Program-made: the position numbers and the translations under genes
In this document: in pieces, positions 16,104-37,119 of the stretch
Layout: each line of letters begins with the position of its first letter
How positions within the stretch are numbered: position 1 is the first letter of the stretch
From: a virus
Lineage: Duplodnaviria > Caudoviricetes
IMG/VR virus record: IMGVR_UViG_3300028914_000003
Location: 32,001 to 96,000 of that record
Reading direction: 5' to 3' (one strand)
Length of the DNA: 64,000 nucleotides
Notes under the pieces: generated by a model
What the model was told of the DNA's origin: nothing
Seen by the model: the letters and a program-made list of their open reading frames with translations, nothing else
Database searches by the model: none

Positions 16104-16138
16104 GTTGCTTCAAAGTTTCATGTTTTATGTTTCAAGTT

Positions 16139-16468: not shown

Positions 16469-16499
16469 AATCGCTGATGTTTTGATGTTTATAATCCGT

Positions 16500-16811: not shown

Positions 16812-16871
16812 AATTCTGAATGATTTTTTTGAATAATTTTCTGTTAATTTTGAGCGAAGCGACCCGATGAC

Positions 16872-17795: not shown

Positions 17796-17990
17796 ACACG
17801 TATATGTTTGGGGGTTAATTACTGTCGTTCAAAAAGACCGGCGGGCTTCACAGCAGGCCGGGCTTCCACTCAAAATCATCAATGGGCCGCCGGAGCACCC
17901 GGCTGGCCCTACAATTATGAAAACACAAATGTATAGTGCCCCGCATCCCATCAAAGGGTAGGCTCTTGTGGCCGTGCAGGGCGATAGGGT

Positions 17991-18620: not shown

Positions 18621-18661
18621 AATCTCGTTGTTTTTTTAATGGGTTAATAATTCGTGATTGT

Positions 18662-19093: not shown

Positions 19094-19112
19094 AGTCTCT
19101 TTTCGTTTAAGT

Positions 19113-19511: not shown

Positions 19512-19514
19512 AAC

Positions 19515-19757
19515 TCAGTTGCCGTTTTGTTTTAACAGTTCATACAGCGAGGGACCGCCCTTGCGCTCCTCGTCCACGTAGGCATCGACCATCCACTGGG
19601 GATAGACGCCGAACTTGACTTCCTTTACGTCGAAATAAAGCCCTCTGTAGTACGCTGCCTTTTCCAGACACTCTTGCTTCTTGCCGCCACATATCTGTGC
19701 AGCATACTTCTCTCCGTCGTGGAACTTAATCACGACGCAGTTTCCTTCAAATCCCAT
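19515..19757 (-). CDS. hypothetical protein
   Basis: 80-aa ORF, first gene downstream of the array. Confidence 0.6.
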   Translation of the reverse strand: MGFEGNCVVIKFHDGEKYAAQICGGKKQECLEKAAYYRGLYFDVKEVKFGVYPQWMVDAYVDEERKGGPSLYELLKQNGN

Positions 19758-19784
19758 AATCGTTTTGATTTTTCGTTTTCGTTA

Positions 19785-20822: not shown

Positions 20823-20832
20823 CTCTCATGCC

Positions 20833-21990: not shown

Positions 21991-22031
21991 AATTGTATGA
22001 ATTAAAGGGTTTATAAAAAAGTTATTGTTTG

Positions 22032-22317
22032 TCTATCGCCATTAACATGGCACATGGATATGCTCTGCTGATATAAATGCTTGATAAAAAAGCGTGTCTT
22101 ACTGCGATAGATAGTCAGGGTGTGCGCCCTGAAAATGCCTGCTCCTTGCGACAGAAGCACATGGCTATAGGTTGTCGATGATTGAGCTGTGGCGCCAGAA
22201 CAGGCGCCAGGATCCATCCACGGTGACAACCTGGACGGATCCAGGCGCCCGCTCTGGTTCAACCCAGCTCAACTAAACACGTTGTCGCCATAAGCAGGCG
22301 GGGCGGTGTGCGCCGCC
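22032..22317 (-). ncRNA. two further array units (22137-22317 complete; 22032-22132 lacks the long hairpin)
   Basis: GCCTGCT-cctt-GCGACA...TGTCGC-cata-AGCAGGC and TCTATCGC...GCGATAGA closing stems; TGTGCG hexaloops; GCACATGG motif. Confidence 0.85.
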
Positions 22318-22324
22318 AATAGTA

Positions 22325-23992
22325 TCACGCTGCCTCAGTCAGCGGCTCAGTCCACGACCGCAGCACCACGAGGTCGGTGTCGTTCTCGCTCTGCCAGAAC
22401 CAACCGCTACCTTCAGGCATCGTGAAACCCTGCAAGGCTTTCAGTAGCTCTCGCTCGGCCTGCTCACGGCTGATGCCATAGAGCATGTCGTCATCTGACA
22501 GCTCGCTTTCCGGCAGGGCATAGAACCGATGCGTCCGGTTCATCGTCTTCTCGCTCGGCACGGAGTGCTTGTAAGCAGCGTAAGCGGCTTCAAGCATCTC
22601 GATAGATGTCTGCTCCCCTCCCTCGGAGGGGTCGGGGGTGGCCTTGGGGTGGGTGGGCTGGATAATCGACAGCGAGCGCACCAGCGTGTCATACGCCGCA
22701 CGGCTCGTTCTTATCGCATTCTGCATACACCCCAGCGAGATATAGCCAGAGATATCGTCGCCCGTCTTGCGGCGGTTAGCCGAGACGTTGCGTCCCCTGC
22801 CTCTGACGATACATCCTACCTTGCCCTGCTTGTCATAGCCCAAGCCTCCGATTTTCCGCTTGCCGGTCTCGACGGCACGCAGGGCATCCATGACAAACGA
22901 GTTCATCGTGTCGATGTCCTCTCTGACATTGACGACACCGAGGATGCCCGTAGCCCACGAGTGACCCTGTCCGTCACCATGATAGAGATAGCGGTTCACC
23001 GAGTTCAGCGCCTTGGCAAATGAGATGCCATGATACCTGCCGTCCTTGCCTTTGACCTTGGCCTTGATAGTGCGTGTCTCTATCTCCTTCTGGAACTTCT
23101 TCAGCCGGCTGCTGCTCATAGACAAGCTCGCTCCCTTGATAGAGAAGCCGAGGAACTTGAACCAGTGCTTGTCATCCAGCCACTCGACTTTCTTCGGATT
23201 CAGGTGCATCTGCATCTTCTCCAGCTCCTCACTCAGCGCGTCCATAGCCTGCTTGGCATCAGGACCGATACACAGGATGTCGTCGCAATACCTGACGTAA
23301 TAGACATTCATCCCCGACAGCCGCTCGTCGATATGATAGAGTATCACGTCGGCCAGCCAGCTTGCCACGGCGCAGCCCTGCTTCAGGGAGCGGTACTTCT
23401 CCTTGACCACATGGTCGGTGTCGATATACAAGTCACTGTGGTAGTACTTCCTGAGCACATCCACCAGCGCGCTCTTGCCGCAGCGCTCCTCGACCATGTC
23501 AAATGCCTGGTCGATATACTCCGCGGGCACGGAGTCAAAGTACTTGCTCAAATCGGCCTTGAAGCCGATAGGGCCGTCAGCATCACGACTCGCCACGACG
23601 ATAGCCTGACTTGCCTCCTGCACCACCTTGCCGCAGCCGACACCCTTGAGGTACGACATACACCTCGGATGCACCTTGTCGCGGAACAGCTCGAAGAGCA
23701 TGTCATTCACGATACTCAGCACCACACGGTCGGCAGGCTCGTTGACACACACCTCGCGATACTCGCCCGGCGTGTCCTTCGGGATAAGGGCGATATGCGG
23801 CGGGGCAATCTCGTACTCTCCGGCCTTGATAGCCTTATAAATCTTGATGCGCACCTCCTCCTTACAGAGCTGGTACAGCCAGTTCTTAGGGATATCCTTC
23901 CCAACGCCCTTGGCGATAGCATACTCCCACCGCTCGGGCTCAAAGAACATCTGCAATAGTTTATCTTCCATAGTCGTAATCGTTTTAGTCAT
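22325..23992 (-). CDS. reverse transcriptase (group II-like / unclassified, YCDD)
   Basis: IPKDTPGEYR, DRVV, FKADLSKYFDSV, LKQGCAVASWLADVIL, YVRYCDDI, FKFLGFSI; extended C-terminus. Confidence 0.93.
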   Translation of the reverse strand: MTKTITTMEDKLLQMFFEPERWEYAIAKGVGKDIPKNWLYQLCKEEVRIKIYKAIKAGEYEIAPPHIALIPKDTPGEYREVCVNEPADRVVLSIVNDMLFELFRDKVHPRCMSYLKGVGCGKVVQEASQAIVVASRDADGPIGFKADLSKYFDSVPAEYIDQAFDMVEERCGKSALVDVLRKYYHSDLYIDTDHVVKEKYRSLKQGCAVASWLADVILYHIDERLSGMNVYYVRYCDDILCIGPDAKQAMDALSEELEKMQMHLNPKKVEWLDDKHWFKFLGFSIKGASLSMSSSRLKKFQKEIETRTIKAKVKGKDGRYHGISFAKALNSVNRYLYHGDGQGHSWATGILGVVNVREDIDTMNSFVMDALRAVETGKRKIGGLGYDKQGKVGCIVRGRGRNVSANRRKTGDDISGYISLGCMQNAIRTSRAAYDTLVRSLSIIQPTHPKATPDPSEGGEQTSIEMLEAAYAAYKHSVPSEKTMNRTHRFYALPESELSDDDMLYGISREQAERELLKALQGFTMPEGSGWFWQSENDTDLVVLRSWTEPLTEAA

Positions 23993-24213
23993 TCAAAAGT
24001 CTTCGACGCCAACGACTCGATAGTAAAGCCGCACAGCGTCATCATGATATCGTCTACAAACTGAGGGTCTTTCTCGTAGGCATCCATGAGCCTGCGGAAC
24101 TTCTTGCGCGACGGCTCTTCGTCGCTTGCCATCTCGTCACCGATGGTGATGAAGAAATCGTCCATCAGGTCCTCGTCGTTGGCAATCTTGATAAGATTAG
24201 GGTCTGTCAGCAT
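23989..24213 (-). CDS. hypothetical protein
   Basis: 74-aa ORF overlapping the RT start (ATGA coupling). Confidence 0.65.
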   Translation of the reverse strand: MLTDPNLIKIANDEDLMDDFFITIGDEMASDEEPSRKKFRRLMDAYEKDPQFVDDIMMTLCGFTIESLASKTFE

Positions 24214-24226
24214 ATTCGTATCGTAT

Positions 24227-24589
24227 TTAGTAACTCATAAAATGCAGGTATCCGTCACGGGTGTCGGCCTCCTGCTGATAGCTCTTCATAATCTTCAGCA
24301 CCTCCTCGGCCGTCATCTTCAGAGCATTCAGGTGCTCCTTGATGTCGTCGCTCTCGTCGAGCAGCGTCGGGTCGCTGATATACACCTCGAGGTTCTGCAC
24401 CGCGTCGTTATAGTCCCCCACGGTGCACTCGAAGATGTCGCTCGGACAGTCCACATCACCGCAGACATAGTTAGGCTCACCGCCCAGCGCACCGAGCAGG
24501 TCATAGAACTTGTCGTGGCTGTAGTTGAACGCCTCCGTATTGCCAAACTCCACCTCGTAGTGCTTGGCTACATGTAATCTCTTTCCCAT
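24227..24589 (-). CDS. hypothetical protein
   Basis: 120-aa ORF in operon. Confidence 0.7.
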   Translation of the reverse strand: MGKRLHVAKHYEVEFGNTEAFNYSHDKFYDLLGALGGEPNYVCGDVDCPSDIFECTVGDYNDAVQNLEVYISDPTLLDESDDIKEHLNALKMTAEEVLKIMKSYQQEADTRDGYLHFMSY

Positions 24590-24595
24590 AATTGT

Positions 24596-24967
24596 TTATT
24601 TTTCGATTTCGCATTTGGTTATTGTCAACTCGATGTGGTCGGTGGGATAGTAGCCTTGCTTGCAGGCTCGGTAGAGCATGGACTCGTCGTGCTCCACCTC
24701 CCAGTCCTTGCGCTTCACATACTGGAGGATAGACTCGTCGCCGCCGTCATCCAGCAGGAAGTCGTGCATATACTTCACGGCTGCATCCTCAGTCGGGAAT
24801 ACCTTGACGATAATGTCGGCACACTCGCCGTCCCACGCCTGCTCGCCGGTAAACACCCAGACATACTCCGGCTTGCTCTCTGCAATAGCATGCAGCGACT
24901 CCGAAATATCATGGAGCAGGTTCGGCACCCGCTCCATGAACTGTTGTTCTAATACTGTCATAGTCAT
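24596..24967 (-). CDS. hypothetical protein
   Basis: 123-aa ORF in operon. Confidence 0.65.
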   Translation of the reverse strand: MTMTVLEQQFMERVPNLLHDISESLHAIAESKPEYVWVFTGEQAWDGECADIIVKVFPTEDAAVKYMHDFLLDDGGDESILQYVKRKDWEVEHDESMLYRACKQGYYPTDHIELTITKCEIEK

Positions 24968-25006
24968 TGTCGTTAAAGTTAGTGATATCCGTATTCCAGT
25001 GCAAGG

Positions 25007-26050
25007 TCACGCCGCCATAGGCAGGGCCACAGGCCCCTCCATCGCCTTGCGGATAGCATCGTACTTCCGCAGGATATAGTTCGTGGCCGACTGCACCTGG
25101 TCGATGACCTTGGGGATAAACTCCTTGTCGCTCTTCAGCGCCTGCCGCCAGTTCTGCACATAGGCGATGTGGTTCTCATCCAGCAGCTTGCCGATGCCGA
25201 GCATCGAGCAGACGCAGGCCGACGACAGCTCCGCCACGAACTCCTCCATGGCATAGTCCTCGTCGCCGAAGTGTCCCTTCACCTCGCGCTTCACGTCGGG
25301 AGCGGTAGAGTGCGCCATCTCATGCAGCGCCGTGGCATAGAACCGCTCGTCGCCCAGGAACTGACTGCGCTCTGGCAGACAAATCTTGTCCTGCGTCGGC
25401 GAATAGTAGCACTCATGCCCCTTGAACTCAATCTTGCAGCGCCACTCGCCCTGCATGATCATACGCTCCAACACCTCGTCCACTGTGCCGTGTACATAGT
25501 CGTGCTCTGGCACTCTCGTCAAATTTTCCCACTTGTCAGGGAACTTCTCCCTGAAGTCGGTCTGCGATAGGTTGAACTCCGGAAAGGCACGCATAGAGAA
25601 ATACTTGCGGCACTCGTCCTTCTCCTCCTGCGACAGCGCGTCATACTCCTTAGCGGTCAGGCGGTTGCCGTCCTTGTCGTAAATCTTCGGGAGCATCTTC
25701 ACCACGGGGAAACTGCTCTCGAACTGCGGCATACCGTTGTCCTTGAACTTCGGCATACCCTGCTCGTCCATAGCCAGGTTTAGGCTCAGCCCCATCTCCG
25801 TCAGCTGCTCGAACGTCAGGAACATAGGCACCTCCCACCCCTTCACGGCGCACAGCAGCGTCAGGAAGAAGTCGTTCATCCCTCGATAGGGCTTCTTATA
25901 CTTGTAGTTGCAAGGCGACCCGTGTCTCGGTGCCACCCACGGCTTCTGATAGTTCGCGCCCTCCATCGTGTCGAGCGCCGTAGCGAACAACTCCGCATAC
26001 TTTTCCTTCTGCTTGTCGTTCATCGTGAATTGTTTCTTTGCCATAGTCAC
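25007..26050 (-). CDS. ardC: ArdC-like antirestriction protein (ssDNA-binding N-terminus plus zincin-like domain)
   Basis: YQKPW...KPYRGMN...FLTFEQL; CYYSPTQDKICLP...FYATALHEMAHST...YAMEEFVAEL...YVQNW. Confidence 0.85.
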   Translation of the reverse strand: MTMAKKQFTMNDKQKEKYAELFATALDTMEGANYQKPWVAPRHGSPCNYKYKKPYRGMNDFFLTLLCAVKGWEVPMFLTFEQLTEMGLSLNLAMDEQGMPKFKDNGMPQFESSFPVVKMLPKIYDKDGNRLTAKEYDALSQEEKDECRKYFSMRAFPEFNLSQTDFREKFPDKWENLTRVPEHDYVHGTVDEVLERMIMQGEWRCKIEFKGHECYYSPTQDKICLPERSQFLGDERFYATALHEMAHSTAPDVKREVKGHFGDEDYAMEEFVAELSSACVCSMLGIGKLLDENHIAYVQNWRQALKSDKEFIPKVIDQVQSATNYILRKYDAIRKAMEGPVALPMAA

Positions 26051-26075
26051 TTCGTTTTAGTTTCAAGTTTCACGT

Positions 26076-26558
26076 TTAACCCATATAGGTTGTCTGCCAG
26101 TCATCGCACGACGGGTCGAGCGTGGTAGCACGGAACGACAGGTCGTTGCATCCGCAGGGCGTAAACAGGTGGAAGTCCTCGCCACGATAGCCGCTCTTGA
26201 AGTCAGCCTTCCATGCGGCATAGTTGTGCATGATGGCGTCCATAGTCACATTAAATCCGTTGGCCTTGAACTCTTCCATAATCTTACGGGCACGCCCCGG
26301 TTTCAGATCCCACACATTAGGCAGGTCGATGTCATACTCACGATAGGGAAACCCCTCCTTGATGTCACGGCCGCTAAAGTTCATTTCATTCAGCGTAGGC
26401 CAGTCGCACGTCTTCCACTCGTCGTCGCCCGGCTCCACATACTGCATAGTCTGCATGTTCACCTTAATCTCCCAGTTCCACGGCAGGAAGCAGTCCTTGC
26501 CCTCGATGACGAACCAGTGGGAGTCGCTGGCTTGCCTCGTTGTTCTGATAGTCTCCAT
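26076..26558 (-). CDS. hypothetical protein
   Basis: 160-aa ORF in operon. Confidence 0.65.
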   Translation of the reverse strand: METIRTTRQASDSHWFVIEGKDCFLPWNWEIKVNMQTMQYVEPGDDEWKTCDWPTLNEMNFSGRDIKEGFPYREYDIDLPNVWDLKPGRARKIMEEFKANGFNVTMDAIMHNYAAWKADFKSGYRGEDFHLFTPCGCNDLSFRATTLDPSCDDWQTTYMG

Positions 26559-26651
26559 AATCTGGATATTTTTGAGTTAAATTTTGAGCGGAGTGACCCA
26601 ATAGAGTCACCCCGCCCATTCGTGAAATCCGTGCAATCCGTGGTCGAAAAG

Positions 26652-28292
26652 TTATGCCGCCTTGCTCATGGCATTGACAATCTCCATAGCCTCCTTGTCG
26701 CCTGCCACCACACGCTTGATAAGGTCAGCCACCTCGGCCTCTGTATAGGTCTTGCCCTTGGGCTCGTCCTCCTTGGCAGCCTTGCGCTCCTCGCGCTTCT
26801 GCTTCCACTCTTCCCGCGTCCGGGCACGCTCCTCGGTAGCCTTGTCGATGATTGACTGGCAGTCCTTGAGTGCCTTGCCTGCGTTCAGCGCGTCGCACAC
26901 CTCCTTGGCAGCGTCGGCATAGCGAGGACCAAAGATGAGATAGAAAGTCTTGCCTCCGTCCTTGTTGCGCTCATAGGTAGCCGATCCGTGCAAGTCGGCA
27001 GCGTTCACGTAGGCAGGGTCGTTCTCGCCAAAGCCCAGAATACGGGCACACGTCTTGCCCTTCTTGTTGGTGTAGGTCGAATAGGTCAGCTTGCCGTCAG
27101 CCTTGGCCTTCGGCTCCTGCTTCTTAGGCTTGCCGCTCTTCTTTGCCTTAGGCATCTCGATAGTCTTAGCGGTAGTCTTGGCAGGCTCCACCTTGATGTC
27201 GTCCACCTCCTCGACCTCGTCGGCAGGTGTCTCGGCAGCGGTATCGCCCTGCAGTTTCCACACCTTGTCGGAGAGCATCTTCTCCAACTGTGCCAGCTTG
27301 ATAGGCATGGGGATAGCGGCAGCGTCGCCCTTTTTGAACTCACCCTGCAGGGTGTCATCCTCTGCACTCTTGATAGTAATACTTGCGACGTTGTCGCCTA
27401 CGATAATCACTTTGCCGATAAGGTCGGCGGCCTTCATGTTGTTCTGTGCCATAGTTGTTTGATTTTTATTGTTTGACTCTTCCGTGGCGGTAGTAATCTG
27501 TTCGGTGATGCCACGCTTCACCAGCTTCTTCGTTAGTTTCGGGTCCTCCAATTCGTCGCAGATAGCGACCCGCTTGCCAGCTCGGATGAGCTTGGGCAGA
27601 TAGGTGTCGAGTGCATGGTGGGGGAACATAGCCATCTGATAGCCGTCCTTATGGGTGGTCAGCGTAATGCCCAGTATCTTCGCGCACTCCACCGCGTCCT
27701 CACAATACGCCTCGTAGAAGTCGCCGCAGCGGAACAGCAGCAGCGCATCGGGATGTTTTGCTTTCAAGTCCTTAAACTGCTTCATCGTCTTCTGTCCCAT
27801 AGTCTCACTCGGTTTTTCGTTGGCGCTCTCTCTTGCAGCCCGCACCTGAGCCTTCACCATAGCCTCGTTCTTCACGTTCTTCATGAACTCGCAGGTGCTT
27901 GCCGTATAGCCGTACAGCGCAACCGACTTCATCAGGTGTTTCAGATGCTCCCAGTCACGCTCGTTGAACAGATAGGCGATGTCATCCTTTGCCTGCTGAA
28001 GAGCAGCCGCCATCACGTCGATGGTCTTCTGCGAGTTCTTCGGGCTGTCCTTTACATCCACCCAGATAGTGTCCGTCAGCGGATTGCCGCTGAAGTCGAA
28101 CGTGCAGCCGTAGCCGCCCCAGTCCGTCTTCCACCCTGCATGGATATTCGCATAGAAGCCCCTACCCTTGCGGTAGCCGGCCGTCACGTTAAGCACGTCA
28201 TACGTCTGTCCCTCGTGCTCATAGGGAGTCACTCCAATATAGAAGTTCTTGTCTTCAATCTTTGCCATACTCTTACTCAGTTTAGCATCCAC
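26652..28292 (-). CDS. multidomain protein with a stand-alone MutS domain I
   Basis: [37 protein letters not shown]...[25 protein letters not shown]; no MutS ATPase. Confidence 0.8.
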
Positions 28293-28648
28293 TTAAACTC
28301 AATCTCACGCTCGTCTTTGTGATTGTCCAATAGCTTATCAATCCACGCCACGAGCGACCAGGGGTCGAGCGTCTTGAAATACTTGCGTAGACGCCCGATA
28401 GTGTTTTCATCTTTCAGCACGAGGTTCGTCTGCAAATCCAGCAGCTTCATGTAGCTGATACGGAACTCGCTGCCGATAGAATAGCAGCCCATATAGATTT
28501 CGCCGGCCATGTCAAGCAGGCACTGGGTCACGGTTTCCCTCACGACGGCTTTCTTCGTTTCGATGCCAGTCGCTTCATAGACGGGCATATCAGTAACCAT
28601 AGCGGCACACAGCTGCATAGGTCTTGTGGTATCAGGAAATACGCTCAT
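28277..28648 (-). CDS. hypothetical protein
   Basis: 123-aa ORF in operon. Confidence 0.55.
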
Positions 28649-28650
28649 AG

Positions 28651-28911
28651 TCAGTCCTCCAATATATAGTCCGAATAGTCCTCCACCTTGAAGATGACAT
28701 CAAGCAGCCACTTGAAGTTCCTCATGCTCACGGTCACAGCCGACCGCCCGTAGTGCTCCCAGTAGATATACTCCTTGCCGTAGCTCGGCGAACCATAACG
28801 GTCGCACACGCCGATAAAGCATAATGCAGTCCCGTACTTCAGCGTCCAGCCTGCCTTTAGCCTCTGATAAGCCTCACGCAGTTTCTCTCGCTTTGTCATT
28901 TTCTTCTCCAT
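28651..28911 (-). CDS. hypothetical protein
   Basis: 86-aa ORF in operon. Confidence 0.6.
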   Translation of the reverse strand: MEKKMTKREKLREAYQRLKAGWTLKYGTALCFIGVCDRYGSPSYGKEYIYWEHYGRSAVTVSMRNFKWLLDVIFKVEDYSDYILED

Positions 28912-28915
28912 AGTT

Positions 28916-29239
28916 TCACGCTGCTTTGTCTAAGTCTTTCATCCATCCCTCGGCCACCACCTCGGTCTCGTTGTAGCCGTCAGGGGTGGCGATAATCTGA
29001 TAGCGGGCATCGTCGCGTGTCAGCGTAGCGAACAGCGTAGTCCACCCGTGCTCCTTAGCCTGCTTGCGCCACCCAGCCAGATAGCGCAGCGCCGTCTTCA
29101 CCAGCTTCACCGATACGCGGTTGAAGTCGCGCTCGGCTATGCGATTGCCATTCTCGTCGCGCTTGCCCTCCAGATACAGGGCTTCGCGATAGGTATCAGC
29201 ACCATACCAGTGCTGAATAATGTAAGTCTGCTTTGCCAT
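28916..29239 (-). CDS. hypothetical protein
   Basis: 107-aa ORF ending DKAA. Confidence 0.65.
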   Translation of the reverse strand: MAKQTYIIQHWYGADTYREALYLEGKRDENGNRIAERDFNRVSVKLVKTALRYLAGWRKQAKEHGWTTLFATLTRDDARYQIIATPDGYNETEVVAEGWMKDLDKAA

Positions 29240-29677
29240 ACCTCACGCTGCTTTTCTGATAAACATGGGCACCAGCTGCTGTGCCTCGTTATTGCTCACG
29301 TGCAGGGCGACCGCAATCTGGCGGCGCACCTTGTTGATAGAAATTCTCTTCGCCATAGTCGTTTATTTTTTTAGTTACACACTTCGTCACGCAGATAGTC
29401 TCTGAACGATACATTTACTCTCGTTGCGTCTTGACGCTGCCATGCAAGGTAGTCGTCATAGACCTCTTGGATAGTTCTCATCATAGTCATGCCAGTGAAT
29501 AAGTTTCATACACTCCTACCCCACTCGATTGCAGGGTACGCCCTATGCGCCATGCCTGATGGCGTAGATAGGACACAGCACCTGCACTCAATCGGTAGGC
29601 TGCAATAATCTCGCCGCAGAGAAGCATACTCCATGCCTCGCTCCACGATAGGAAATTCTTTCGTCTCGGTTTCATAT

Positions 29678-29944
29678 TTAGAACGGGATTTGCTCATACA
29701 CACTCGGACGCTCATAGATGGTCACAAACTCATCCATGCCGTCGCTCCACGTCAGCAGGTGGTGCTCGCTTGTCGCTTGCACATCGTCCACCACTTCCTC
29801 CGCCTCAGGCTCATGCACAAGGTGGGGATAGTGCTCGCGGATATACTCCACGAACTCATCCAGCGTCATGCGCTGGTATGCCTCTGCCAGTTCTTCCCAC
29901 GCTTCCTCGCTTTGGGAATACCAGATAAAACGTTTTGCTTCCAT
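29678..29944 (-). CDS. hypothetical protein (paralogue of the N-terminus of 30325..30888)
   Basis: LDEFVEYIREHYPHLVHEPEAEEV versus LDEFVEHVRTHYPQALCEPAEEQV. Confidence 0.65.
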   Translation of the reverse strand: MEAKRFIWYSQSEEAWEELAEAYQRMTLDEFVEYIREHYPHLVHEPEAEEVVDDVQATSEHHLLTWSDGMDEFVTIYERPSVYEQIPF

Positions 29945-29947
29945 AGT

Positions 29948-30322
29948 CTAAGCTGATTTTAGTTCAACATTCTTCTCCCTGCACTCCCGTTCGTCCTCAC
30001 GCCAGCGGAACCCCATAAGAGAGTCTGTAAAACGTGAGAAACTACCGCTCCATGAGTCTCCGCCCTCACGGAAGAATGAGTGCCACAGTGTCTCCTGATA
30101 GCACGCCTTAACACTCCACGTCTCGATGCCGTCGATAAGCACAGAGACATCCATAGGCGCATAGCCATAGAGCGCAAAGAGCTTGTCGGCCTCCTTGTCG
30201 TAAAACTCCTGCATGGCAGGGCGCAGGCGGTTGCAGTTCAAGTCACGCGGATAGGTGTAGTCAAACGTGCGATCTATGTTCGGGAAATAGAGACGCACAG
30301 TCTCTTGTCTTTCGTTTGCCAT
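29948..30322 (-). CDS. hypothetical protein
   Basis: 124-aa ORF in operon. Confidence 0.6.
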   Translation of the reverse strand: MANERQETVRLYFPNIDRTFDYTYPRDLNCNRLRPAMQEFYDKEADKLFALYGYAPMDVSVLIDGIETWSVKACYQETLWHSFFREGGDSWSGSFSRFTDSLMGFRWREDERECREKNVELKSA

Positions 30323-30324
30323 AG

Positions 30325-30888
30325 TTAGTCCTCCAGCTTATAGAACACAACAGACTGGTTTATCAGCGGCTCTGCGCCGTCGCGCTTCAGCGCCATCTCA
30401 TAGTCAGGCTCAGACAGACGCTCCGACCAACGACCCAGCGGGTTCACGCCGCCCTCGTCGGTGTACACATAGAGCCACTTGCCAGGCATCCGATGCACGC
30501 CAACGGTGCCGAACTCATAGTGCGTATCGTCCACATCCTCGCATACGCCCCACTGCGAATTGTCCACACCGCTGCGGTTGATAGCGTCGAACAGACCGAA
30601 CATACGCTCCTTCCACGTCTTCGACATCTGCTTCTCGTATATACGCATCGTCTCGCCCATATTGTGCTGCTCGTTAGTCAGGATATAGCGGTCGCTCTGC
30701 TCGTCCACCATGCCCTGCACCTGCTCCTCAGCAGGCTCACACAATGCCTGCGGATAGTGGGTGCGCACATGCTCCACAAACTCGTCCAGCTCGCCCTCGA
30801 AGTTATAGAACTCGTTAGCCAGCCTCTCCGAATACTCGTCGGTGTCATGCACCATGATAATCACTTTTGCCATAGTCACTCCTCCCAT
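30325..30888 (-). CDS. hypothetical protein
   Basis: 187-aa ORF in operon. Confidence 0.65.
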   Translation of the reverse strand: MGGVTMAKVIIMVHDTDEYSERLANEFYNFEGELDEFVEHVRTHYPQALCEPAEEQVQGMVDEQSDRYILTNEQHNMGETMRIYEKQMSKTWKERMFGLFDAINRSGVDNSQWGVCEDVDDTHYEFGTVGVHRMPGKWLYVYTDEGGVNPLGRWSERLSEPDYEMALKRDGAEPLINQSVVFYKLED

Positions 30889-30891
30889 AGT

Positions 30892-31128
30892 TTATGCCAG
30901 GATGCCGTCGAACGGATCCCACGTGTAATTCAGCTCGTGCGCCATGTCCTGCACAGCCGCCTTGCCGCACTCGTCCATAGCAGGCGCAGCCAGCAGGCCG
31001 GCTGCCATGGAAACTATTACTGCACTGCCTGTAGAGCAGCGGATAGCCTTCGGGGTATTCTCCCACATCTTCTTGAAGATAGTCTTTACACTCTTCTTGG
31101 CGGTGTTTGCCATGTCTTTTGTTGCCAT
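30892..31128 (-). CDS. hypothetical protein
   Basis: 78-aa ORF in operon. Confidence 0.5.
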   Translation of the reverse strand: MATKDMANTAKKSVKTIFKKMWENTPKAIRCSTGSAVIVSMAAGLLAAPAMDECGKAAVQDMAHELNYTWDPFDGILA

Positions 31129-31162
31129 AGTTGTAAATTTTTTGAATTGAATTTGTTGATGA

Positions 31163-31444
31163 TTATGCTGCGCGCTTATAGTTAGCGCGTTTGTTGTCGA
31201 TAGAGCGATAGCGGGTGTCGCGCTTCGCGTCGAACACTCCCACTAATGCTGCGCCCAAGATGCCCGTGCAGAAATACACGGCCACCACTACGTTAGTGCT
31301 GACGCCATGCTCCACCAGCACCAGCGCCATAAACATAGCCACGATAGCGGCTATCAACATTTTTGCGATTGTTCTCATTTTCGTTTTGGTTTTAGTTACT
31401 TTACTTCTTCGGCATAGTCTGCCGTCTGCTCTCCAAGTTCCCAC
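31163..31444 (-). CDS. small two-TM membrane protein
   Basis: Two hydrophobic segments; true start probably MRTIAK; ends KRAA. Confidence 0.55.
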   Translation of the reverse strand: MGTWRADGRLCRRSKVTKTKTKMRTIAKMLIAAIVAMFMALVLVEHGVSTNVVVAVYFCTGILGAALVGVFDAKRDTRYRSIDNKRANYKRAA

Positions 31445-31568
31445 TCCACTTCGTCCAGACGTTCACTTGCAATAGCACATGCCTCGTCCTTGCTATCCGC
31501 TTCCAAATACAGATAGCCATTGTGGATCTGCGTACATGTTACACAATATTTTGCCATAGTTTATGGTT

Positions 31569-32201
31569 TTAGCTGTTCACATAGTTACCAACAGGCGTGT
31601 CAATAGTCACGTCCTCAAATTGCAGGCGATAGTCCGCAGGCTCGCCGTCGAAGAAGTGGTTGATAGCCACGACGCACTGCTCGGCGGTAACATCATGCTC
31701 GTACTCCTTGCTCGCCTCATAGAGGGAGTTTACATAATCCTCGTGCCCCTGCATGCCGTCTACGAACTCCGACAGCGGCAGGCACACGCCACGCACGTCG
31801 ATAGTCTTCCAGTTGTCGCCCTTATAGGTGTATCCCAAGAGCGAAATCTGCTTCTGTCCCATGTCGTCAAGTTCGACAGCATAGAAGTCGATAGCCTCTG
31901 GCTGGCGCACGGGCTTGAACCGCGTCATGTCGCAAAGGTGCTCCCGCAGATAGTCCAGCAGCTCCTCGTCCGTAGGATCCCTGCGTATAAACTCCGAGTC
32001 GGAATAAAAGAAGATTTCCTCGTCGAGCCTCGTGGCGTACTTGTCGCCCAGCTCCATTCTGCGCTCCAGCACGTCCCATAGCGCAACGTCAGCCACGTCC
32101 ACGCTCCGATAGCTCTCGCCATCGAACGTCGGCAGGCTCGTGATGTCGATAGTGCGAACGATATAGTCCACACCATTCAATGTGATAGTCGATTTTTGCA
32201 T
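31569..32201 (-). CDS. acidic hypothetical protein
   Basis: 210-aa ORF in operon. Confidence 0.7.
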   Translation of the reverse strand: MQKSTITLNGVDYIVRTIDITSLPTFDGESYRSVDVADVALWDVLERRMELGDKYATRLDEEIFFYSDSEFIRRDPTDEELLDYLREHLCDMTRFKPVRQPEAIDFYAVELDDMGQKQISLLGYTYKGDNWKTIDVRGVCLPLSEFVDGMQGHEDYVNSLYEASKEYEHDVTAEQCVVAINHFFDGEPADYRLQFEDVTIDTPVGNYVNS

Positions 32202-32234
32202 TTCTCAGTCCTCCTGATAGTTTGGGGTTATGTG

Positions 32235-32651
32235 TTATGCCGCCTTGCGCATAGCCTTGCGCTCGCGATTGCGGCGAATATTTGCAATATACTTTCCATA
32301 TTTCTGCTCCAACTCCTTGCGGTATTCTGGATAGTCTTCACACGGCAGGCGCAGGATAGCCTCGTAGACGTAGCGGGCGTCTGTCACGCTGCACATGCCC
32401 TGACGGTGCAGCTTGTTCATAATGTTGTGATAGATACGACCCGCGCTCTCCAGGCGCTTGAACTCATGCGACTCCATGTACTCGCGCATTTCGCGGATAG
32501 CCTGCTTGTCGCCGTTCCATAGACCACTAATCATGCTGCTGTGACTCATGCGCCCGCGCTCAACGGGATAGCCTGTCTGTACACACCAGTCCACATCTTC
32601 GAGAGTGTACGACTCGCCGAAGATAATTCTTGTCTCTGCTTTCGTTGCCAT
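32235..32651 (-). CDS. hypothetical protein
   Basis: 138-aa ORF ending RKAA. Confidence 0.65.
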   Translation of the reverse strand: MATKAETRIIFGESYTLEDVDWCVQTGYPVERGRMSHSSMISGLWNGDKQAIREMREYMESHEFKRLESAGRIYHNIMNKLHRQGMCSVTDARYVYEAILRLPCEDYPEYRKELEQKYGKYIANIRRNRERKAMRKAA

Positions 32652-32669
32652 AGGTCAGTCCTCCGGATT

Positions 32670-32885
32670 TTAGTTTACAAACCATTTCATGCTTTTTACT
32701 TGATTGTCTTTCACGATAGCATAGCCCTCGCAATCTGCGAGACGGGCGGCCGTAGCCACTTCCTGCTCCGTGTAGTCACTTGGCATTTTCTCTTTTCTCC
32801 AGGTGCTTGTGTCCGCCATGCGTTTCCGTGAGTGGAAATAGATGGCATAGGTTCCGATAAATCCTTGCATAATTCTGTTCTCCAA
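32670..32885 (-). CDS. hypothetical protein
   Basis: 71-aa ORF in operon. Confidence 0.5.
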   Translation of the reverse strand: MENRIMQGFIGTYAIYFHSRKRMADTSTWRKEKMPSDYTEQEVATAARLADCEGYAIVKDNQVKSMKWFVN

Positions 32886-33521
32886 TGTTTTTCCGATAGG
32901 TCGAAGACAACGGGGCGCACAGCCCGATAGTCATGCGCCCCGTATAGTTACATCACGTCGAATGGGTCGGTCTGCCCGTCGATAGCATCCTGCGGCTCGT
33001 CGGCACTCGCGATATGGTGGCACGACTGCAGCCACGAACCGATAGACAATGCCCATAGCGCCAGCAGTACTTTCACGATACGTCTGCCGATAGTCCTCAT
33101 ACGGGTAGGTTTGTCCGTCACATCACCCCAGTCTGCGCGCTCTACCTCCTGTACCACGCGTACTTTTAGGGGTGGCTCGTCACTGATAGCCCACTTCTTC
33201 GCCATAGGCTCACTCGTCTTCTGGTTCGTTACTCGCACGCTCGTCCAGCATAGCCTGCAGCTCGTCAATCTCGCCCGATAGCCACTCCTTGCGCGCCCCG
33301 ATGGTTGCCAACTCATTACGATAGTCCGTCAGCATATCCTCGATAGCTTCCGTACTCATGTCCTTGTAGTCTACTTCTCTTGTCTTCACTTTTTTCTCGT
33401 TTTAGTGGATGAACCAATTTTGTTGATAACACACGTCTCACGCCTTAGCACGTTCCGCTGACCACCTTTCCATAGTCCTATAAAAGTGCGCTTTCAAGTG
33501 TCTGTCTGAGCGTAATTGCAA

Positions 33522-33585
33522 GCGGATAGGGAATTGAACCCTATAGCCATCCGTGTACCCCCGCCACCCAGGTACGTTTTCCCGC
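33522..33585 (-). ncRNA. tRNA-like RNA element A
   Basis: Minus strand: GCGG...AAACGT, GTACC[TGGGTGGCGGG]GGTAC hairpin, T-arm TAGGG-TTCAATT-CCCTA, closing CCGC. Confidence 0.45.
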
Positions 33586-33919
33586 GATGATACGGATAGT
33601 TCCTAATCATTCCGCCCTATATCTCTTCCCCCATGATAGGGGTGTCGTCCATTCACTCCATACGCTGTCTTGCGATAGCGCATACCACCAGTACGCTCTT
33701 CCTCACGGATAGCCTCGCTTACTTATTCGCGAGCTCGCCATAGTGGATTTACTTTGACGCATTGACTCACCAACTATTCAGCATCCGCACTCTGCCAACA
33801 CCTTAAACTCGTATAGGAACCTGCAGCCCACCCAAGTGGATAGCCTGCACAAACGTCAGGATAGTCATTTTACGCTTTCGTCCGACCTGCGTCTACTTGC
33901 AACCTGAGCAAAACAATGC

Positions 33920-34017
33920 ACCCGTAATCGGAGTCGAACCGATAGAGGGATGTGGAGCGTCCCGCCACCTAACGCACTTTAGCCGCGATAATCACTCCCT
34001 CGTCCACGTTTACGGGT
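33920..34017 (-). ncRNA. tRNA-like RNA element B
   Basis: Minus strand: acceptor-like ACCCGTA/TACGGGT, AAACGT, GCGT[TAGGTGGCGGG]ACGC hairpin, T-arm ATCGG-TTCGACT-CCGAT. Confidence 0.55.
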
Positions 34018-34378
34018 AAGCCTGCCACTACAAACTCTTGCGATAGCAGGTCTTCGTGATGTAGCTATTCTCGAAGCGACATACACCCACATAGGACTTG
34101 ACAGTACCAGCTTCCTCTCGATAGCAGGTATTCTTCACTCTGCGCTTTTGCGGACGTCTGTCTCTGGCGATAGCAGCGACATGTTTCATGCCACCGCCCT
34201 TACGTTTACCCGTGATAGGACTGCGCCCGAGAACCAATAGAGTCTGCTTAGCACTCTTGCGCTCTGCACTTCGATGTTCGTACTTTCGCTGTAGAACGAT
34301 AAGCAGGGCACGCATGGTAGGCGTGCTCTGCTCACTCATAGGGTCGTACATCTGTTCCGGTACCATAGTCCACTCGCT

Positions 34379-35047
34379 TTAGAACTCCAACACGGGCTTC
34401 TCAATCTCCTGAATCTTGTTCACACCGTCAATAGTCTTAACAATGTAGACGTGCTCGATAGCCTCATAGTTCTCGCGGCTCTTCTCTGCGCGCTTAGTCT
34501 CATCAGCGATGTACTTGCTCTGAGTCAGTACGTCCATGATAAGCTCAGGACCCCAACCATACGTGTCAATCATGCACTTGCGATAGACCTTGATAGCCTT
34601 AGCGCCGGACTCTCCCTTGGCTTTCTTGGTAGCCTCTTCGAGGGTGTAGATAGAATAGCTGCGTGTGCCCTCGTCAGTGTTCTCCTCATAGGATTCCACC
34701 ATGACGTTGCGGTCGCGATAGACGTAGGTCTGCATAACCTTACCCTGGTCGTTACGCTCTAAGAGCTGCTCAGCTACGACTGCGTTAAAGGTAGCGGGCG
34801 TATAGCCTACACACTTCTTCTTGTCGCCCTTGCCTACGAAGTGGGGAGCCATACCCATATAGGAGATGTGCTCTTCCTTGGTTACACCATAGGCGGTAGC
34901 AGTGCCGTCAGACTTGATAGATACAAGCTGCATAGCGTGGTTGTGCCACAGGGTCAGCAACTGAGCGGATAAGGTACGTGAGTCCTTAGTCACTTCCTTA
35001 GTCATACGCTTCTCATTCTTCTTCTCGATTCTCTTTGTAGTACTCAT
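34379..35047 (-). CDS. hypothetical protein, first large gene of the leftward early region
   Basis: Likely start MSTTKR within ORF 34379..35128. Confidence 0.7.
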   Translation of the reverse strand: MSTTKRIEKKNEKRMTKEVTKDSRTLSAQLLTLWHNHAMQLVSIKSDGTATAYGVTKEEHISYMGMAPHFVGKGDKKKCVGYTPATFNAVVAEQLLERNDQGKVMQTYVYRDRNVMVESYEENTDEGTRSYSIYTLEEATKKAKGESGAKAIKVYRKCMIDTYGWGPELIMDVLTQSKYIADETKRAEKSRENYEAIEHVYIVKTIDGVNKIQEIEKPVLEF

Positions 35048-35366
35048 AATTGTAAAATTTTGATGTTGATAGATGTTATCTGCGCTCATACGTCGCATTG
35101 TGGGAGCGGATAGATTCGCACTATCCACCGCCTACCTAACACATAAGCCATCAAGGTACTCGCAAAGTGTAGATACGTCGGTTGATGAGTCTATATTTTA
35201 GTACACGTTTCGTCACGAAATAAGCACTATGGAAGCATGCACACAGAGGCAGTCAGTCTTGCATAATACGCACCATTATAGTAGGCACTCGCACGTCGGC
35301 ACGGATATAGCCGAATAAGAAACGACATTCTTATCTCCCCAAGCGGTTTGCGCCTATGTGTACACA

Positions 35367-35431
35367 ATACGTCACTCTAAATGACCGCTTTCGTGTTTGC
35401 GCTTGTGCATACGTCACTCTAAATGACCGCT
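35367..35431. repeat. 23-bp direct repeat x2
   Basis: ATACGTCACTCTAAATGACCGCT at 35367 and 35409. Confidence 0.85.
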
Positions 35432-35488
35432 ACGCGTACCGCTTGTTTTAACCCTAAATACGTCAAAGAACTATTTTGTTGCAACCGC

Positions 35489-35550
35489 TTGTCGTTTGGT
35501 TACGTTGCAAAGATACGAAATAATCTCTAACTTTGCAAGCAAACGACAAA
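35489..35550. promoter_or_regulatory. inverted repeat carrying -7 promoter boxes on both strands
   Basis: TTGTCGTTTG...TTGCAAAG / CTTTGCAA...CAAACGACAA; TATCTTTG on -, TAACTTTG on +. Confidence 0.55.
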
Positions 35551-35933
35551 AAATTTTGTAAAGATTTCGGAAAATGTGCAGTCCCATTCGCGTACCTTTT
35601 TTATTATTATTCGTCGCTTTCCGTTTTCTTTACATTTTTGCATCATGAAAAATGAGGCTCCTTTGCATATATGCAAGCAAATGAAAACAGCACCGCACAG
35701 GGTGAGTCCCCCAGCGAGGCGCGGGGTCTTCTTCGGCTTCGAGAAAAAAAAGAAAAAAAAGAAGAGGTTGGTTGCGCGTTTATACAACGTATCGCGCAAC
35801 AAAAAGCAACCAACACTTTCTGCATAAAAGTATTGGTTGCTATAAATGCTTATATGTAACTATGATTACATAACAATGTTAATTTTAACTTTTATCTATT
35901 TTATATTTTAACAATTCGGAAAATGGTTAATGG

Positions 35934-36437
35934 TTAGTTCTCGCCTACCTCAATACCTGACAGCATGCCAGCCACGGCCAGCACCTCGGCATTGATCCGG
36001 GCCACCTGATCGGCAGTGATGGTACCGTAGGCCCTGGCAGTTCTGGAGTTGAGCGCCGATGACGTGCGGCTCTGCGTCCACCCCACCACGCGCAGGAAGA
36101 ACGGGCCGAGCTTGAACCATCGCTGCAACGCCCTGAGCTGCGGCACGGTGCCGGGGTCGTAGGTCTCGCCACGGCGGCTGGTGTAGGTATCATGACTGCC
36201 GAATGTCACCAGACCGCTGCGCATCTGGTCGGCCAGCAGCGGCAGTGCCTCGTTCATCTTCTGGAGAATGTCGGCAGAAAACCGACGTGGCTTGCCGTGG
36301 CGGTCTGGCATGTGACGAAAGCAGTCCACCAGCGTGCCGTTGCCTATGCCCATCAGTTCGTTCAACCGGAGCAGGTTCACGTTGTGACCTGTCAGATACT
36401 CATATAGGAAGTCTTGTGTAACAGTTACCTTATTCAT
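35934..36437 (-). CDS. hypothetical protein, possibly DNA-binding
   Basis: Likely start MNKVTV; LNELMGIGNGTLVDCF is HTH-like. Confidence 0.6.
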   Translation of the reverse strand: MNKVTVTQDFLYEYLTGHNVNLLRLNELMGIGNGTLVDCFRHMPDRHGKPRRFSADILQKMNEALPLLADQMRSGLVTFGSHDTYTSRRGETYDPGTVPQLRALQRWFKLGPFFLRVVGWTQSRTSSALNSRTARAYGTITADQVARINAEVLAVAGMLSGIEVGEN

Positions 36438-36666
36438 ATATTCGTGTAGCTTTTGAATGATTCGACGCTGCGAAGGTAAATAAATTTTCTCTAACCGCAA
36501 AATCACTTAAACTTATTTAACGAAATTTTCTCTTACCATGCGAACAAAAAAACAGCCCACCGGCATTTGTGCTGCTGATGAACTGTTGAAAGTAGGGAGA
36601 TTTCGTTGAGAAATTGACCTGCGGTCGATAACCTTACTCCTCGTCGTCTGTGTCGCCGACGCGCTT

Positions 36667-37119
36667 TTATGATACGCTGCTGGCAAATTTGCTGTCGCCT
36701 GAGATGGGGTTGTCGACGTGCAGTGGCATGTTGCGCTTGCGGTAGACCATGTCCTGACGCTTGCGGATGATGGGATCCTGCGGATGACGGCTGAACGAAT
36801 GGCGCGTCGGGTCAAACTCGCCACAGTCCAACTCGCGCTTCATGTTGCAGGCCGGCCGGAACTTCAGGCGTTTGGTAGCTGGATAGTGGCGCATCTCGTC
36901 GGTGTCCTTATACGCATAGCGGCGAACGCGCTCCGGCACGTCGACAACGGCAAAGGTGCCGAACGAGTCGATGGGCACACACGGGTAGTGGCCCTCTATG
37001 AGTCTGTATCTGATCTCGTCGAAGACAGCCGGCAGCACCGTCTCGACGGTCGCCTGGCAGATGCCGCTGCGCTTACTGACGGCCGCGGCCAGTTTCTGAA
37101 GGTTTTGTTTGGGGAGCAT
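36667..37119 (-). CDS. HU/IHF-like DNA-binding protein
   Basis: LAAAVSKRSGICQATVETVL...VPIDSFGTFAVVDVPERVRR...PATKRLKFRP. Confidence 0.75.
   Translation of the reverse strand: MLPKQNLQKLAAAVSKRSGICQATVETVLPAVFDEIRYRLIEGHYPCVPIDSFGTFAVVDVPERVRRYAYKDTDEMRHYPATKRLKFRPACNMKRELDCGEFDPTRHSFSRHPQDPIIRKRQDMVYRKRNMPLHVDNPISGDSKFASSVS

Follow-up and report, generated by a model that had tools for sequence, protein, structure and literature searches.

Genes and features of the locus

We analysed a 64,000-nucleotide window of viral DNA (positions 32,001 to 96,000 of IMG/VR record IMGVR_UViG_3300028914_000003; all coordinates below are those of the window) from one of a family of large rumen Prevotella-type phage-plasmids. 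The plus strand of positions 10000 to 35114 carries a ramp of the pentamer SATAG (S, G or C), along which ATAG falls leftwards from ~22 per kb at the right edge to ~5 per kb and CTAT is depleted. The genes beneath this ramp are encoded on the minus strand. The first ORF of the operon (34379 to 35047; 222 amino acids from its ATG) matched no Pfam or PHROG family and no homologues were found in IMG/VR; motif-rich DNA starts at its 5' end. Beyond it lies an ORF-less stretch (33441 to 34028, minus strand) with two tRNA-like T-arm elements and 12 plus-strand ATAG, in which no tRNA or Rfam family was found. Further left are encoded a MutS domain I protein (26652 to 28292), which is the sole ramp gene common to all six genomes compared, and an anti-restriction-like protein (25007 to 26050; 14 CTAT per kb) that combines an ArdC N-terminal domain with a zincin peptidase domain. 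A 1669-aa polyvalent protein (9122 to 14131) contains Eco57I-type N6-adenine methylase and SNF2 helicase domains and resembles P1 DarB. Pfam searches with ten further large ORFs returned nothing informative, and no recognisable primase or polymerase was found in the scanned parts of the phage. Six-frame searches of the whole 132.6-kb genome gave no match to RecT, ERF, YqaJ or AAA_24; no phage recombinase or exonuclease module was thus found among these families. Restriction pressure on the phage is extreme, CTAG being absent where 513 copies are expected and nine 6-bp palindromes wholly missing.

The right-hand boundary of the ramp is occupied by a transcribed, motif-poor leader (35130 to 35500, minus strand) with several palindromes and two exact 23-bp direct repeats (35367-35389 and 35409-35431). 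A -7 box of the Bacteroidota host type (TATCTTTG; 35508 to 35515, minus strand), with TTTG upstream, is presumed to be the early promoter, ~400 nt upstream of the first dense motifs. The preceding unit is closed by a strong intrinsic terminator (35805 to 35841, minus strand; 16-bp stem and T run), and no comparable minus-strand terminator was found within 16000-35500. A conserved 170-aa protein (35934 to 36446, minus strand) is encoded just upstream of the ramp in every relative. Its structural model (pLDDT 94) is matched weakly by Xre/Cro-type HTH folds (Z 3.4-4.7), according to which the protein is probably DNA-binding. A plasmid origin, comprising a Rep_3 initiator and iterons, lies in motif-poor DNA 6-7 kb to the right of the boundary. 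The host-type promoter together with the anti-restriction-like genes suggests that the region is early.

Enrichment, polarity and gradient of SATAG

In 500 dinucleotide-preserving shuffles of 28600-35300, GATAG was expected 5.0±2.1 times; it occurs 63 times (z=27). SATAG occurs 106 times against 14.4±3.6 in such shuffles, and the reverse word CTAT is rarer than expected (14 copies against 32±5). The first-pass annotation had reported the enrichment, which is considerably stronger than stated there, and its counts made by eye proved exact: 14 GATAG, 22 ATAG and no CTATC in 33301-34380, and 9 ATAG in 32941-33300. The densest part of the ramp (28000 to 35114, plus strand) contains 137 ATAG and 12 CTAT. 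Here ATAG is preceded by G in 66 cases, C in 47, T in 14 and A in 10, and CGATAG, GATAGC, ATAGTC and CCATAG are the favoured longer forms. On the plus strand, which is the template for the leftward genes, the core motif reads 5'-[G>C]ATAG-3', and its excess on this one strand amounts to ~200 copies.

Codon-controlled shuffles gave the same result as dinucleotide-controlled ones. The 18 minus-strand genes of 25007-35128 contain 117 CTATS, compared with 44±5 after synonymous shuffling that preserved both the proteins and the region's own codon usage (z=14.5) and 31 after shuffling of codon order; CTAT itself is present 143 times, 35 being expected from the codon usage of neighbouring control genes. 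Across the three kinds of shuffle, z ranged from 14 to 27. Neither reading frame nor coding status affects the motif, and its reported presence in both coding and non-coding DNA was borne out, ATAG reaching ~20 per kb in the non-coding stretch 33441-34028 as it does in coding DNA. An artefact of codon usage or composition was rejected since the enrichment outlasts all three kinds of shuffle and has the same density outside genes.

The strand specificity of the word is apparent from silent codon choice. Opportunities to create sense CTAT silently are taken in 56-65% of cases as against 19-22% in controls, whereas those for sense ATAG are taken less often than in controls (6% versus 11%, and 12% versus 23%). 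A symmetric duplex binding site is ruled out, because sense ATAG is not favoured where silent choice allows it. Relative to synonymous shuffles, sense CTAT in the first 10 kb of six genomes is 2.2× as frequent as expected (z=26) and the inverted word only 0.68× (z=-3.0), so that strong polarity is coupled to counter-selection of the inverted word, as in signals of the KOPS/SRS type. The same word is arrived at through two different silent changes, and the rare CTA codon is used before T in 20% of cases versus 4% in controls. Amino-acid composition is also shifted, Met accounting for 3.7% of residues versus 2.5%. Helical phasing or regular spacing was rejected, only the 3-nt coding periodicity being detected, as was a single mutational precursor, given that 0 of 12 one-step neighbours of ATAG are selectively emptied. 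Recoding of TAG in plus-strand genes was likewise discarded: the standard code already gives a tightly packed set of minus-strand genes, and plus-strand frames open up under TAG recoding only because TAG is the main stop there.

Density along the genome is graded, not uniform. ATAG is found ~5 times per kb at 5-15k and 22 times per kb at 31-35k, falls to 3-4 per kb right of 35.1k and lies at 0-4 per kb in the late genes at 46-64k, which agrees with the leftward fading and late-gene rarity noted in the first-pass annotation. SATAG stops abruptly at ~35110, at the start of the presumed early anti-defence operon, and decays leftwards over ~25 kb. When six genomes are pooled the density is described by 17.9/kb·exp(-x/12.6 kb)+2.2/kb, an exponential that fits better than a linear model. 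Each genome has one ramp, and no mirror ramp was found right of the edge in any genome examined; the arrangement is hence a single ramp and not the two arms of opposite polarity that converge on a target site in KOPS-type systems. The minus-strand genes just upstream of the promoter are without enrichment.

The ramp in relatives and in host DNA

Five related viral contigs (70-140 kb) and two further loci carry the identical word with the same polarity and sharp edge. Between the eight loci most genes beneath the ramp are non-homologous, and the word is kept even though the phage proteins are only 40-60% identical. At all eight loci the ramp begins 260-870 nt downstream of a host-type promoter, from which it is separated by a motif-poor, repeat-rich leader, and lies within one transcription unit, co-oriented with every gene. 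BLAST comparison of the ramp edges revealed pairwise similarity only, and no shared cos, nick or origin element was found in the leaders of the eight relatives. The 1669-aa protein is present in four of six genomes, the contigs of the other two being incomplete. Plus-strand ORFs in one relative's ramp were dismissed as shadow frames; they have mostly GTG starts and no Pfam match, and face tightly packed, ATG-started minus-strand genes. Because they are shadow frames, they do not provide the inverted gene that would separate a DNA-level from an RNA-level reading. Phage B40-8 of Bacteroides fragilis, in which an Erf-like protein is present, has no comparable ramp, and nothing relevant was found in the literature on GATAG in phages or on Prevotella phage-plasmids.

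Host DNA was sampled through one 290-kb contig of the likely host genus, assigned by metagenome binning. The host chromosome had been proposed as a place to look for over-represented oriented motifs, and on this contig SATAG is neither over-represented nor skewed towards the leading strand as a Chi would be. The replication skew of GATAG is +0.09 and that of CATAG -0.01, showing no SATAG polarity, and both fall in the middle of the ranking, for abundance as for skew, when compared with words of the same composition. Nor is there any general enrichment of SATAG words after host stop codons.

Possible readers of the signal

The SATAG ramp is a real and conserved signal that is read directionally and is independent of gene content. 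Shuffles, non-uniformity and conservation all sustain the earlier proposal of an oriented cis signal; of the three readers named with it (nuclease attenuation, a primase or translocase, a protective protein), none was singled out. Since the motif overrides codons and shifts amino acids over ~25 kb of unrelated genes and is kept in every relative examined, some machine of the infected cell must read it directionally. The DNA end, the reader and the effect of a site are ones we infer. Our tentative suggestion is that SATAG copies serve as Chi-like sites, recognised by a helicase-nuclease of AddAB type that enters at the boundary; a signal in RNA and a polar translocase encoded by the phage are to be taken seriously as rivals. 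The word would be a polar cis-signal on DNA, and a strand-tracking motor would read it on its way leftwards from the right-hand boundary (~35.1-35.9k). The reader would most likely be a host AddAB-type helicase-nuclease, entering a double-strand end at or near the boundary that might be supplied by the injected genome end or by a rolling-circle tail from a lytic origin located there. Each SATAG on the 3'-ending plus strand would act as a weak Chi-like site, at which the enzyme turns from degradation to loading RecA. Only sites that the enzyme reaches would be useful, and so selection and density would fall exponentially with distance.

The motif occupies the strand with its 3' end towards the sharp edge, as Chi must for enzyme entry from the right (PMC12315714). 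Its orientation is thus right for Chi if the end lies at the sharp edge, where the eight leaders share no site. The mean unwinding length of B. fragilis AddAB is 12.6-14 kb, with a maximum of 40 kb, and its Chi was reported in 2010 as not known (PMC2887965); the agreement of this mean with the 12.6 kb decay length favours Chi-like sites. Lambdoid phages without recombination modules carry co-oriented Chi, clustered towards one end in LLS (PMC12315714), and set a precedent for the present phage, in which RecT, ERF, YqaJ and AAA_24 were sought and not found. Moreover, one ramp per genome is expected if only one end is exposed, and the imposition of the motif on non-homologous genes at eight loci, regardless of frame or coding, points the same way. 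The Chi-like option of the first-pass annotation is hence upheld by geometry, decay length and published precedent but not by the 290-kb host contig, in which SATAG shows no over-representation or skew. Known Chi sites show both in their own hosts. Known Chi sequences are also G-rich, which SATAG is not, and we know of no Chi cluster that nears ~200 extra copies of a 5-mer. Further points against Chi-like sites are the promoter and the 0.3-0.9 kb of motif-poor leader on the enzyme's approach side, the lack of any sequence element shared by the leaders of the eight relatives, and the depletion of the inverted word (0.68×, z=-3), which a Chi model does not predict.

The ramp could instead reflect a signal in RNA or transcription, read either as CUAUS within the early transcript or, in the transcription bubble, as CTATS of the non-template strand. 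Such a signal is conceivable but doubtful. Its reader would be of host or phage origin, for example an RNA-binding protein, a ribonuclease or a modifier of RNA polymerase or Rho, and its gradient would arise from a race against time, promoter-proximal RNA appearing first and motifs there mattering most in the first minutes. The position of all eight ramps behind a host-type promoter within one co-oriented transcription unit is as this predicts, and so are the ~19 kb free of strong internal terminators, the avoidance of the inverse word on the sense strand, the presence of the motif in structured non-coding RNA stretches and its absence from minus-strand genes just upstream of the promoter. However, the 5' leader of the same transcript is without the motif, no bacterial RNA reader with such specificity is known, selection for an RNA word that shifts amino acids would be unprecedented, and a smooth 12.6-kb decay along a terminator-free operon requires an extra assumption. 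It is unlikely that the word serves to load or orient a polar machine of the phage's own on incoming DNA. A candidate for this machine is the methylase-SNF2 helicase polyvalent protein (9122-14131), which, delivered by the virion, would bind the asymmetric word, track one way and shield or mark the first-exposed DNA, co-orientation avoiding head-on collisions between molecules. That the word persists across such diverged phages while the host is unpolarised argues for a phage-borne reader, the depleted inverted word is compatible with an orienting signal like those of KOPS or Type ISP systems, and both the methylase-helicase and ArdC-like proteins are encoded in the region. Against this, the 1669-aa protein is seen in only four of the six genomes, although the contigs of the other two are incomplete, and P1 DarB protects any packaged DNA and is not known to need a motif for it.

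Replication offers an improbable explanation in which a leftward lytic origin at the boundary leaves 5'-CTA(T)-3' on the displaced minus strand for lagging-strand priming, 5'-CTA-3' being the initiation trinucleotide of several DnaG primases. The polarity would suit a leftward fork, with CTAT on the would-be lagging-strand template; a repeat-rich non-coding region adjoins the conserved, probably DNA-binding protein at the boundary, and the scanned parts of the phage lack a recognisable primase or polymerase. Yet a trinucleotide needs no enrichment and predicts no gradient, host CTAT is unbiased by replication strand, and the Rep_3/iteron origin lies elsewhere, in motif-poor DNA. Escape from an orientation-dependent Type III or Type ISP enzyme that cuts only between inverse sites is very improbable. 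Sites confined to one strand would make the first-exposed DNA uncuttable, and excess sites might serve as harmless decoys; depletion of the inverted orientation where the forward one is densest is consistent with this, as is the loss of CTAG and the nine palindromes, but avoidance yields polarity and not a 5-10-fold excess or an exponential gradient, and decoys are unprecedented. Finally, that there is no signal at all, and that codon usage, amino-acid composition, TAG recoding or context-dependent mutation bias generates the pattern, is largely refuted and highly improbable. All genes do lie on one strand, the codons TAT, GCT and ACT are over-used and host genes already favour sense CTATS 2:1. 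Nevertheless, the enrichment withstands synonymous, codon-order and dinucleotide shuffles and extends to non-coding DNA, CTA before T and the two convergent silent changes single out the word itself, neighbouring minus-strand genes are not enriched, and the minus-strand genes are packed under the standard code.

Related known systems include Chi-bearing phages, with 20 active versus 3 inactive Chi in Escherichia coli phage LLS and 32 versus 0 in Pseudomonas phage MD8 (PMC12315714). These phages, without recombinase genes of their own, share with the ramp a strong excess of a short asymmetric word on one strand (PMC12315714), and in LLS the word crowds towards one end, its orientation being read by an end-entering helicase-nuclease. 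The 20-32 copies in LLS and MD8 are of an 8-mer that is the host's proven, chromosome-polarised Chi, whereas the ramp has ~200 extra 5-mers at up to 22 per kb in a smooth exponential, reshapes codon and amino-acid usage and has no polarised counterpart in the sampled host DNA. AGCGG, read by AddAB in Bacillus subtilis, is like SATAG a pentamer read on one strand, and shows that an AddAB Chi can be five bases (PMC2887965). The two sequences are unrelated, one G-rich and the other AT-cored, and the AddAB link for SATAG is a proposal. KOPS are G-rich 8-mers on bacterial chromosomes that converge on dif from both sides. Like them and other skewed chromosome words, SATAG is polar, denser towards its presumed target and selected against in the inverted orientation; unlike them it forms one one-sided ramp on a phage-plasmid, with the host chromosome unpolarised. 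All EcoP15I sites of phage T7 reportedly lie on one strand. These are again asymmetric words in a phage whose genes share a direction, but T7 displays polarity without excess, whereas SATAG is 5-10 times over-represented and graded.

The ramp might possibly represent a kind of signal new to phage genomes, a polar pentamer that is 'entry-graded' and is read by Bacteroidales AddAB (as Chi) or by a phage-delivered polar translocase or protective protein; it would serve as a distance- or time-weighted protection code on the anti-defence genes in the first-exposed 25 kb. If AddAB is the reader, the ramp is a concrete candidate for the Bacteroidales Chi, and this can be tested directly with a published single-molecule assay (PMC2887965). 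With a phage-encoded or RNA-acting reader, abundant phages of gut and rumen would possess a cis-acting signal of a new type for early infection. Graded polar k-mers could also mark the first-exposed end and anti-defence island of uncultured phages from sequence alone. In an unbiased k-mer scan of three genomes, ATAG/GATAG at the ramp was the top local enrichment, rivalled only by coding repeats and an AT-rich island.

Excess and position of the motif

A strand-biased enrichment of GATAG and ATAG at 28600–35300 had been described in the first-pass annotation, and our recount of its manual GATAG, ATAG and CTATC values was identical. The bias survives dinucleotide-preserving shuffles: 63 GATAG were observed against 5.0±2.1 and 127 ATAG against 25±4.5, with CTAT, the reverse complement of ATAG, at 14 against 32±5. 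From about 4.4k to 35.1k every gene is minus-strand and packing is tight, which makes CTATS (S, G or C) the word in mRNA sense, mostly spelled NNC-TAT and NCT-ATS and rarely via a CTA codon. Eighteen genes at 25007–35128 hold 117 CTATS. The excess persists under synonymous-codon shuffling that fixes protein sequence and local codon usage (44±5) and under codon-order shuffling (31), and CTAT falls from 143 to 35 when these proteins are rewritten with codon frequencies taken from neighbouring minus-strand genes. Non-coding DNA carries the motif too, as first proposed, the ORF-free 33441–34028 matching the density of coding DNA (12 ATAG in 588 nt). The core is ATAG preceded by G in preference to C, further flank preferences being weak. 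When every 4- and 5-mer was scanned without prior choice of word, no local enrichment in three genomes exceeded that of ATAG/GATAG here, and only Lys/Glu-rich coding repeats and one AT-rich island equalled it. The motif excess is real, highly significant and conserved, and composition does not explain it.

ATAG density declines leftwards from about 22/kb at 31–35k to about 15/kb at 25–31k, about 10/kb at 17–25k and about 5/kb further left, bearing out the fading seen by eye. Beyond 35.1k it falls at once to 3–4/kb, though genes there are also minus-strand. Late genes, in which the motif had seemed rare, hold 0–4/kb, and density along the genome is not uniform. TAG recoding does not apply.

Conservation of the ramp and its boundary

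The window covers bases 32001–96000 of a 132,635-bp contig that closes as a circle, since its ends overlap by 127 bases. Genes for a large terminase, a tape-measure-like giant protein, ParA, a replication initiator and a DnaC-like loader identify a tailed phage that also carries a module for plasmid maintenance. Contigs with related terminases binned with rumen Prevotellaceae genomes, and the phage promoters follow the Bacteroidota pattern TAnnTTTG.

In each of five relatives, viral contigs of 72–142 kb retrieved whole, the word, its polarity relative to genes and the sharp edge are unchanged, and density declines in a similar way. Two further loci with a ramp were reached via a conserved neighbouring gene only 44–47% identical. 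The pooled profile of the six genomes follows 17.9/kb·exp(−x/12.6 kb)+2.2/kb, a fit that halves the residual left by a linear model and corresponds to an excess of about 225 copies in each genome. Genes beneath the ramps are mostly non-homologous between genomes, a MutS-domain-I protein being the only one common to all six; the word is thus set by position, not inherited with particular genes. No opposite-strand genes were found inside any ramp; candidate plus-strand ORFs in the ramp of one relative proved to be shadow frames.

Along the minus strand at the boundary, a conserved 170-aa gene is followed by a strong intrinsic terminator (35841–35805), then by a host-type promoter (−7 box, 35515–35508) and a motif-poor leader of roughly 400 nt that contains palindromes and two exact copies of a 23-bp repeat; the first ORF and motif-rich DNA come next. 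All eight loci are arranged in this way, their leaders measuring 260–870 nt and bearing repeats that differ and are genome-specific; no sequence element common to the eight leaders was found. The 170-aa protein is probably DNA-binding, its confident model (pLDDT 94) giving only weak matches to Xre/Cro-type helix-turn-helix proteins. No minus-strand terminator comparable to that at 35841–35805 lies within 16000–35500, so the ramp probably occupies one long operon. Its products include an ArdC-N/zincin protein, a methylase-SNF2 helicase polyvalent protein, a reverse transcriptase and many small unknown proteins, content that fits an anti-defence region presumably expressed early.

The reverse transcriptase (RVT_1, 555 aa, 22325–23992) is shared only with one relative, G002 (71% identity). 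Genes for HU-type and HU-HIG DNA-binding proteins adjoin the boundary in all relatives (36667–37119 in the window; L089:6510–6935 and 8228–9115; L091:3363–3968). Immediately upstream of the ramp promoter, G002 and a second relative, G004, carry a minus-strand gene of 512–557 aa made of degenerate Ala/Lys-rich repeats (GCC-GCC-GCC...; L029:1–1567 plus the end of L028, that is G004 139997–141535, and the homologous part of G002), and their leaders hold >10 copies of CACAGGCC-like repeats. Called gene maps of the two ends of a 143-kb ENA contig (L089 and L090) have in common a block of ~3.7 kb including a conserved 203-aa gene, and part ~1 kb downstream of that gene, past its promoter and ~1 kb short of the rise of the ramp in L090; these maps, as distinct from an alignment, suggest strain-level cassette variation starting near the boundary. 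Canonical tRNA T-arm elements (GGTTCAATTCC / GGTTCGACTCC) without a full cloverleaf occur on the minus strand at 33515–33600 and 33920–34017, and one lies within the leader of a distant relative (L091:7495–7525). ARAGORN and Rfam made no call on them; they may be RNA-processing signals.

Strand specificity and possible readers

Across the six genomes, silent opportunities for sense CTAT are taken far more often than in control genes (NNC-TAT, 56% vs 22%; NCT-ATS, 65% vs 19%; CTA-T, 20% vs 4%), and those for the inverted word less often (6% vs 11% and 12% vs 23%). Against synonymous shuffles, sense CTAT reaches 2.2× (z=26) over the first 10 kb and 1.9× over the second, the inverted word 0.68× (z=−3.0) and 0.86×, and controls 1.1× and 1.0×. 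The signal is oriented, as had been supposed. A symmetric duplex site polarized by coding constraints alone is excluded, because the inverted word is both under-used and depleted. No helical phasing of the motif was found.

Chi is the word at which RecBCD/AddAB changes nuclease activity, and it is possible, if tentative, that the ramp is a Chi-like attenuator of an end-entering AddAB-type enzyme. The enzyme would enter from the sharp-edge side, reading [G/C]ATAG (SATAG) on the strand that ends 3′ there; the word does lie on that strand, and Chi must lie on the strand ending 3′ at the entry side (PMC12315714). The 12.6-kb decay length equals the mean processivity reported for AddAB of B. fragilis, whose Chi is unknown (PMC2887965), a match that is suggestive only. 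Precedent exists in lambdoid phages without recombination modules, whose Chi sites share one orientation and, in phage LLS, gather towards one end (PMC12315714), and the studied phage gave no match to RecT, ERF, YqaJ or AAA_24. Against this, SATAG is not clearly special in sampled host DNA. Short contigs totalling about 195 kb, from a genome that binned a relative, hold 462 copies on the G-rich strand vs 347, without clear sign of special status. On a 290-kb contig of the same genus the word is as abundant as composition predicts and, in the suggested comparison with host chromosome motifs, neither over-represented nor skewed (replication skew with gene direction controlled, GATAG +0.09, CATAG −0.01; both mid-table among words of the same composition). 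Moreover, promoter and leader would sit in unprotected DNA, the copy number far exceeds any known Chi cluster and a Chi-like reading does not predict that the inverted word is depleted.

A signal read on RNA or by the polymerase is rather unlikely and has no known precedent, but it fits about as well as the Chi-like reading, given the coincidence of ramp and transcription unit, the motif-free leader and a sense strand that avoids the inverse word. A phage-encoded polar translocase or protective protein, which we judge improbable, would account for a constant word in divergent phages alongside an unpolarised host. Lagging-strand priming, escape from orientation-dependent restriction, and artefact or mutation bias are each very improbable; no one-step mutational precursor of the motif is selectively emptied. 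Whatever its reader, the motif is a polar genome word of the class that includes Chi and KOPS (FtsK-orienting polar sequences), but differs in its shortness, density and exponential grading and in heading a putative phage anti-defence operon.

Related words and restriction avoidance

The palindrome CTAG is absent from five of the six phage genomes (283–538 expected) and has 6 copies in the sixth, 3 in Bacteroides phage B40-8 and 110 in the host-genus contig (1119 expected). BfaI of Bacteroides cuts CTAG. Nine 6-bp palindromes are likewise missing from the studied genome (AAGCTT, ACTAGT, ATGCAT, CATATG, CCTAGG, CTTAAG, GCTAGC, TCTAGA and TTCGAA; about 28–36 expected each), and GATC is depleted threefold. 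This pattern of sequence absences indicates very strong restriction avoidance.

One of seven host-genus genomes, G013, contains tandem heptamer arrays, CATAGT(C/G/T), matching the phage word and its preferred flanks (L093:2560–2608; L094:2280–2314 and 6906–6919; L095:2582–2595). The copies mostly occupy short spacers, with a stop codon directly before and the next gene after, and put TAG in every frame; one such array separates metG from a 23S_rRNA_IVP four-helix-bundle gene. These arrays have the word on the sense strand, contrary to the phage ramp. B40-8 shows a weak polarity in its replication and recombination genes (L100:24000–36000), with 13–19 sense ATAG per 2 kb vs 2–8 CTAT; relative to transcription, this polarity is opposite in sense to that of the studied phage.
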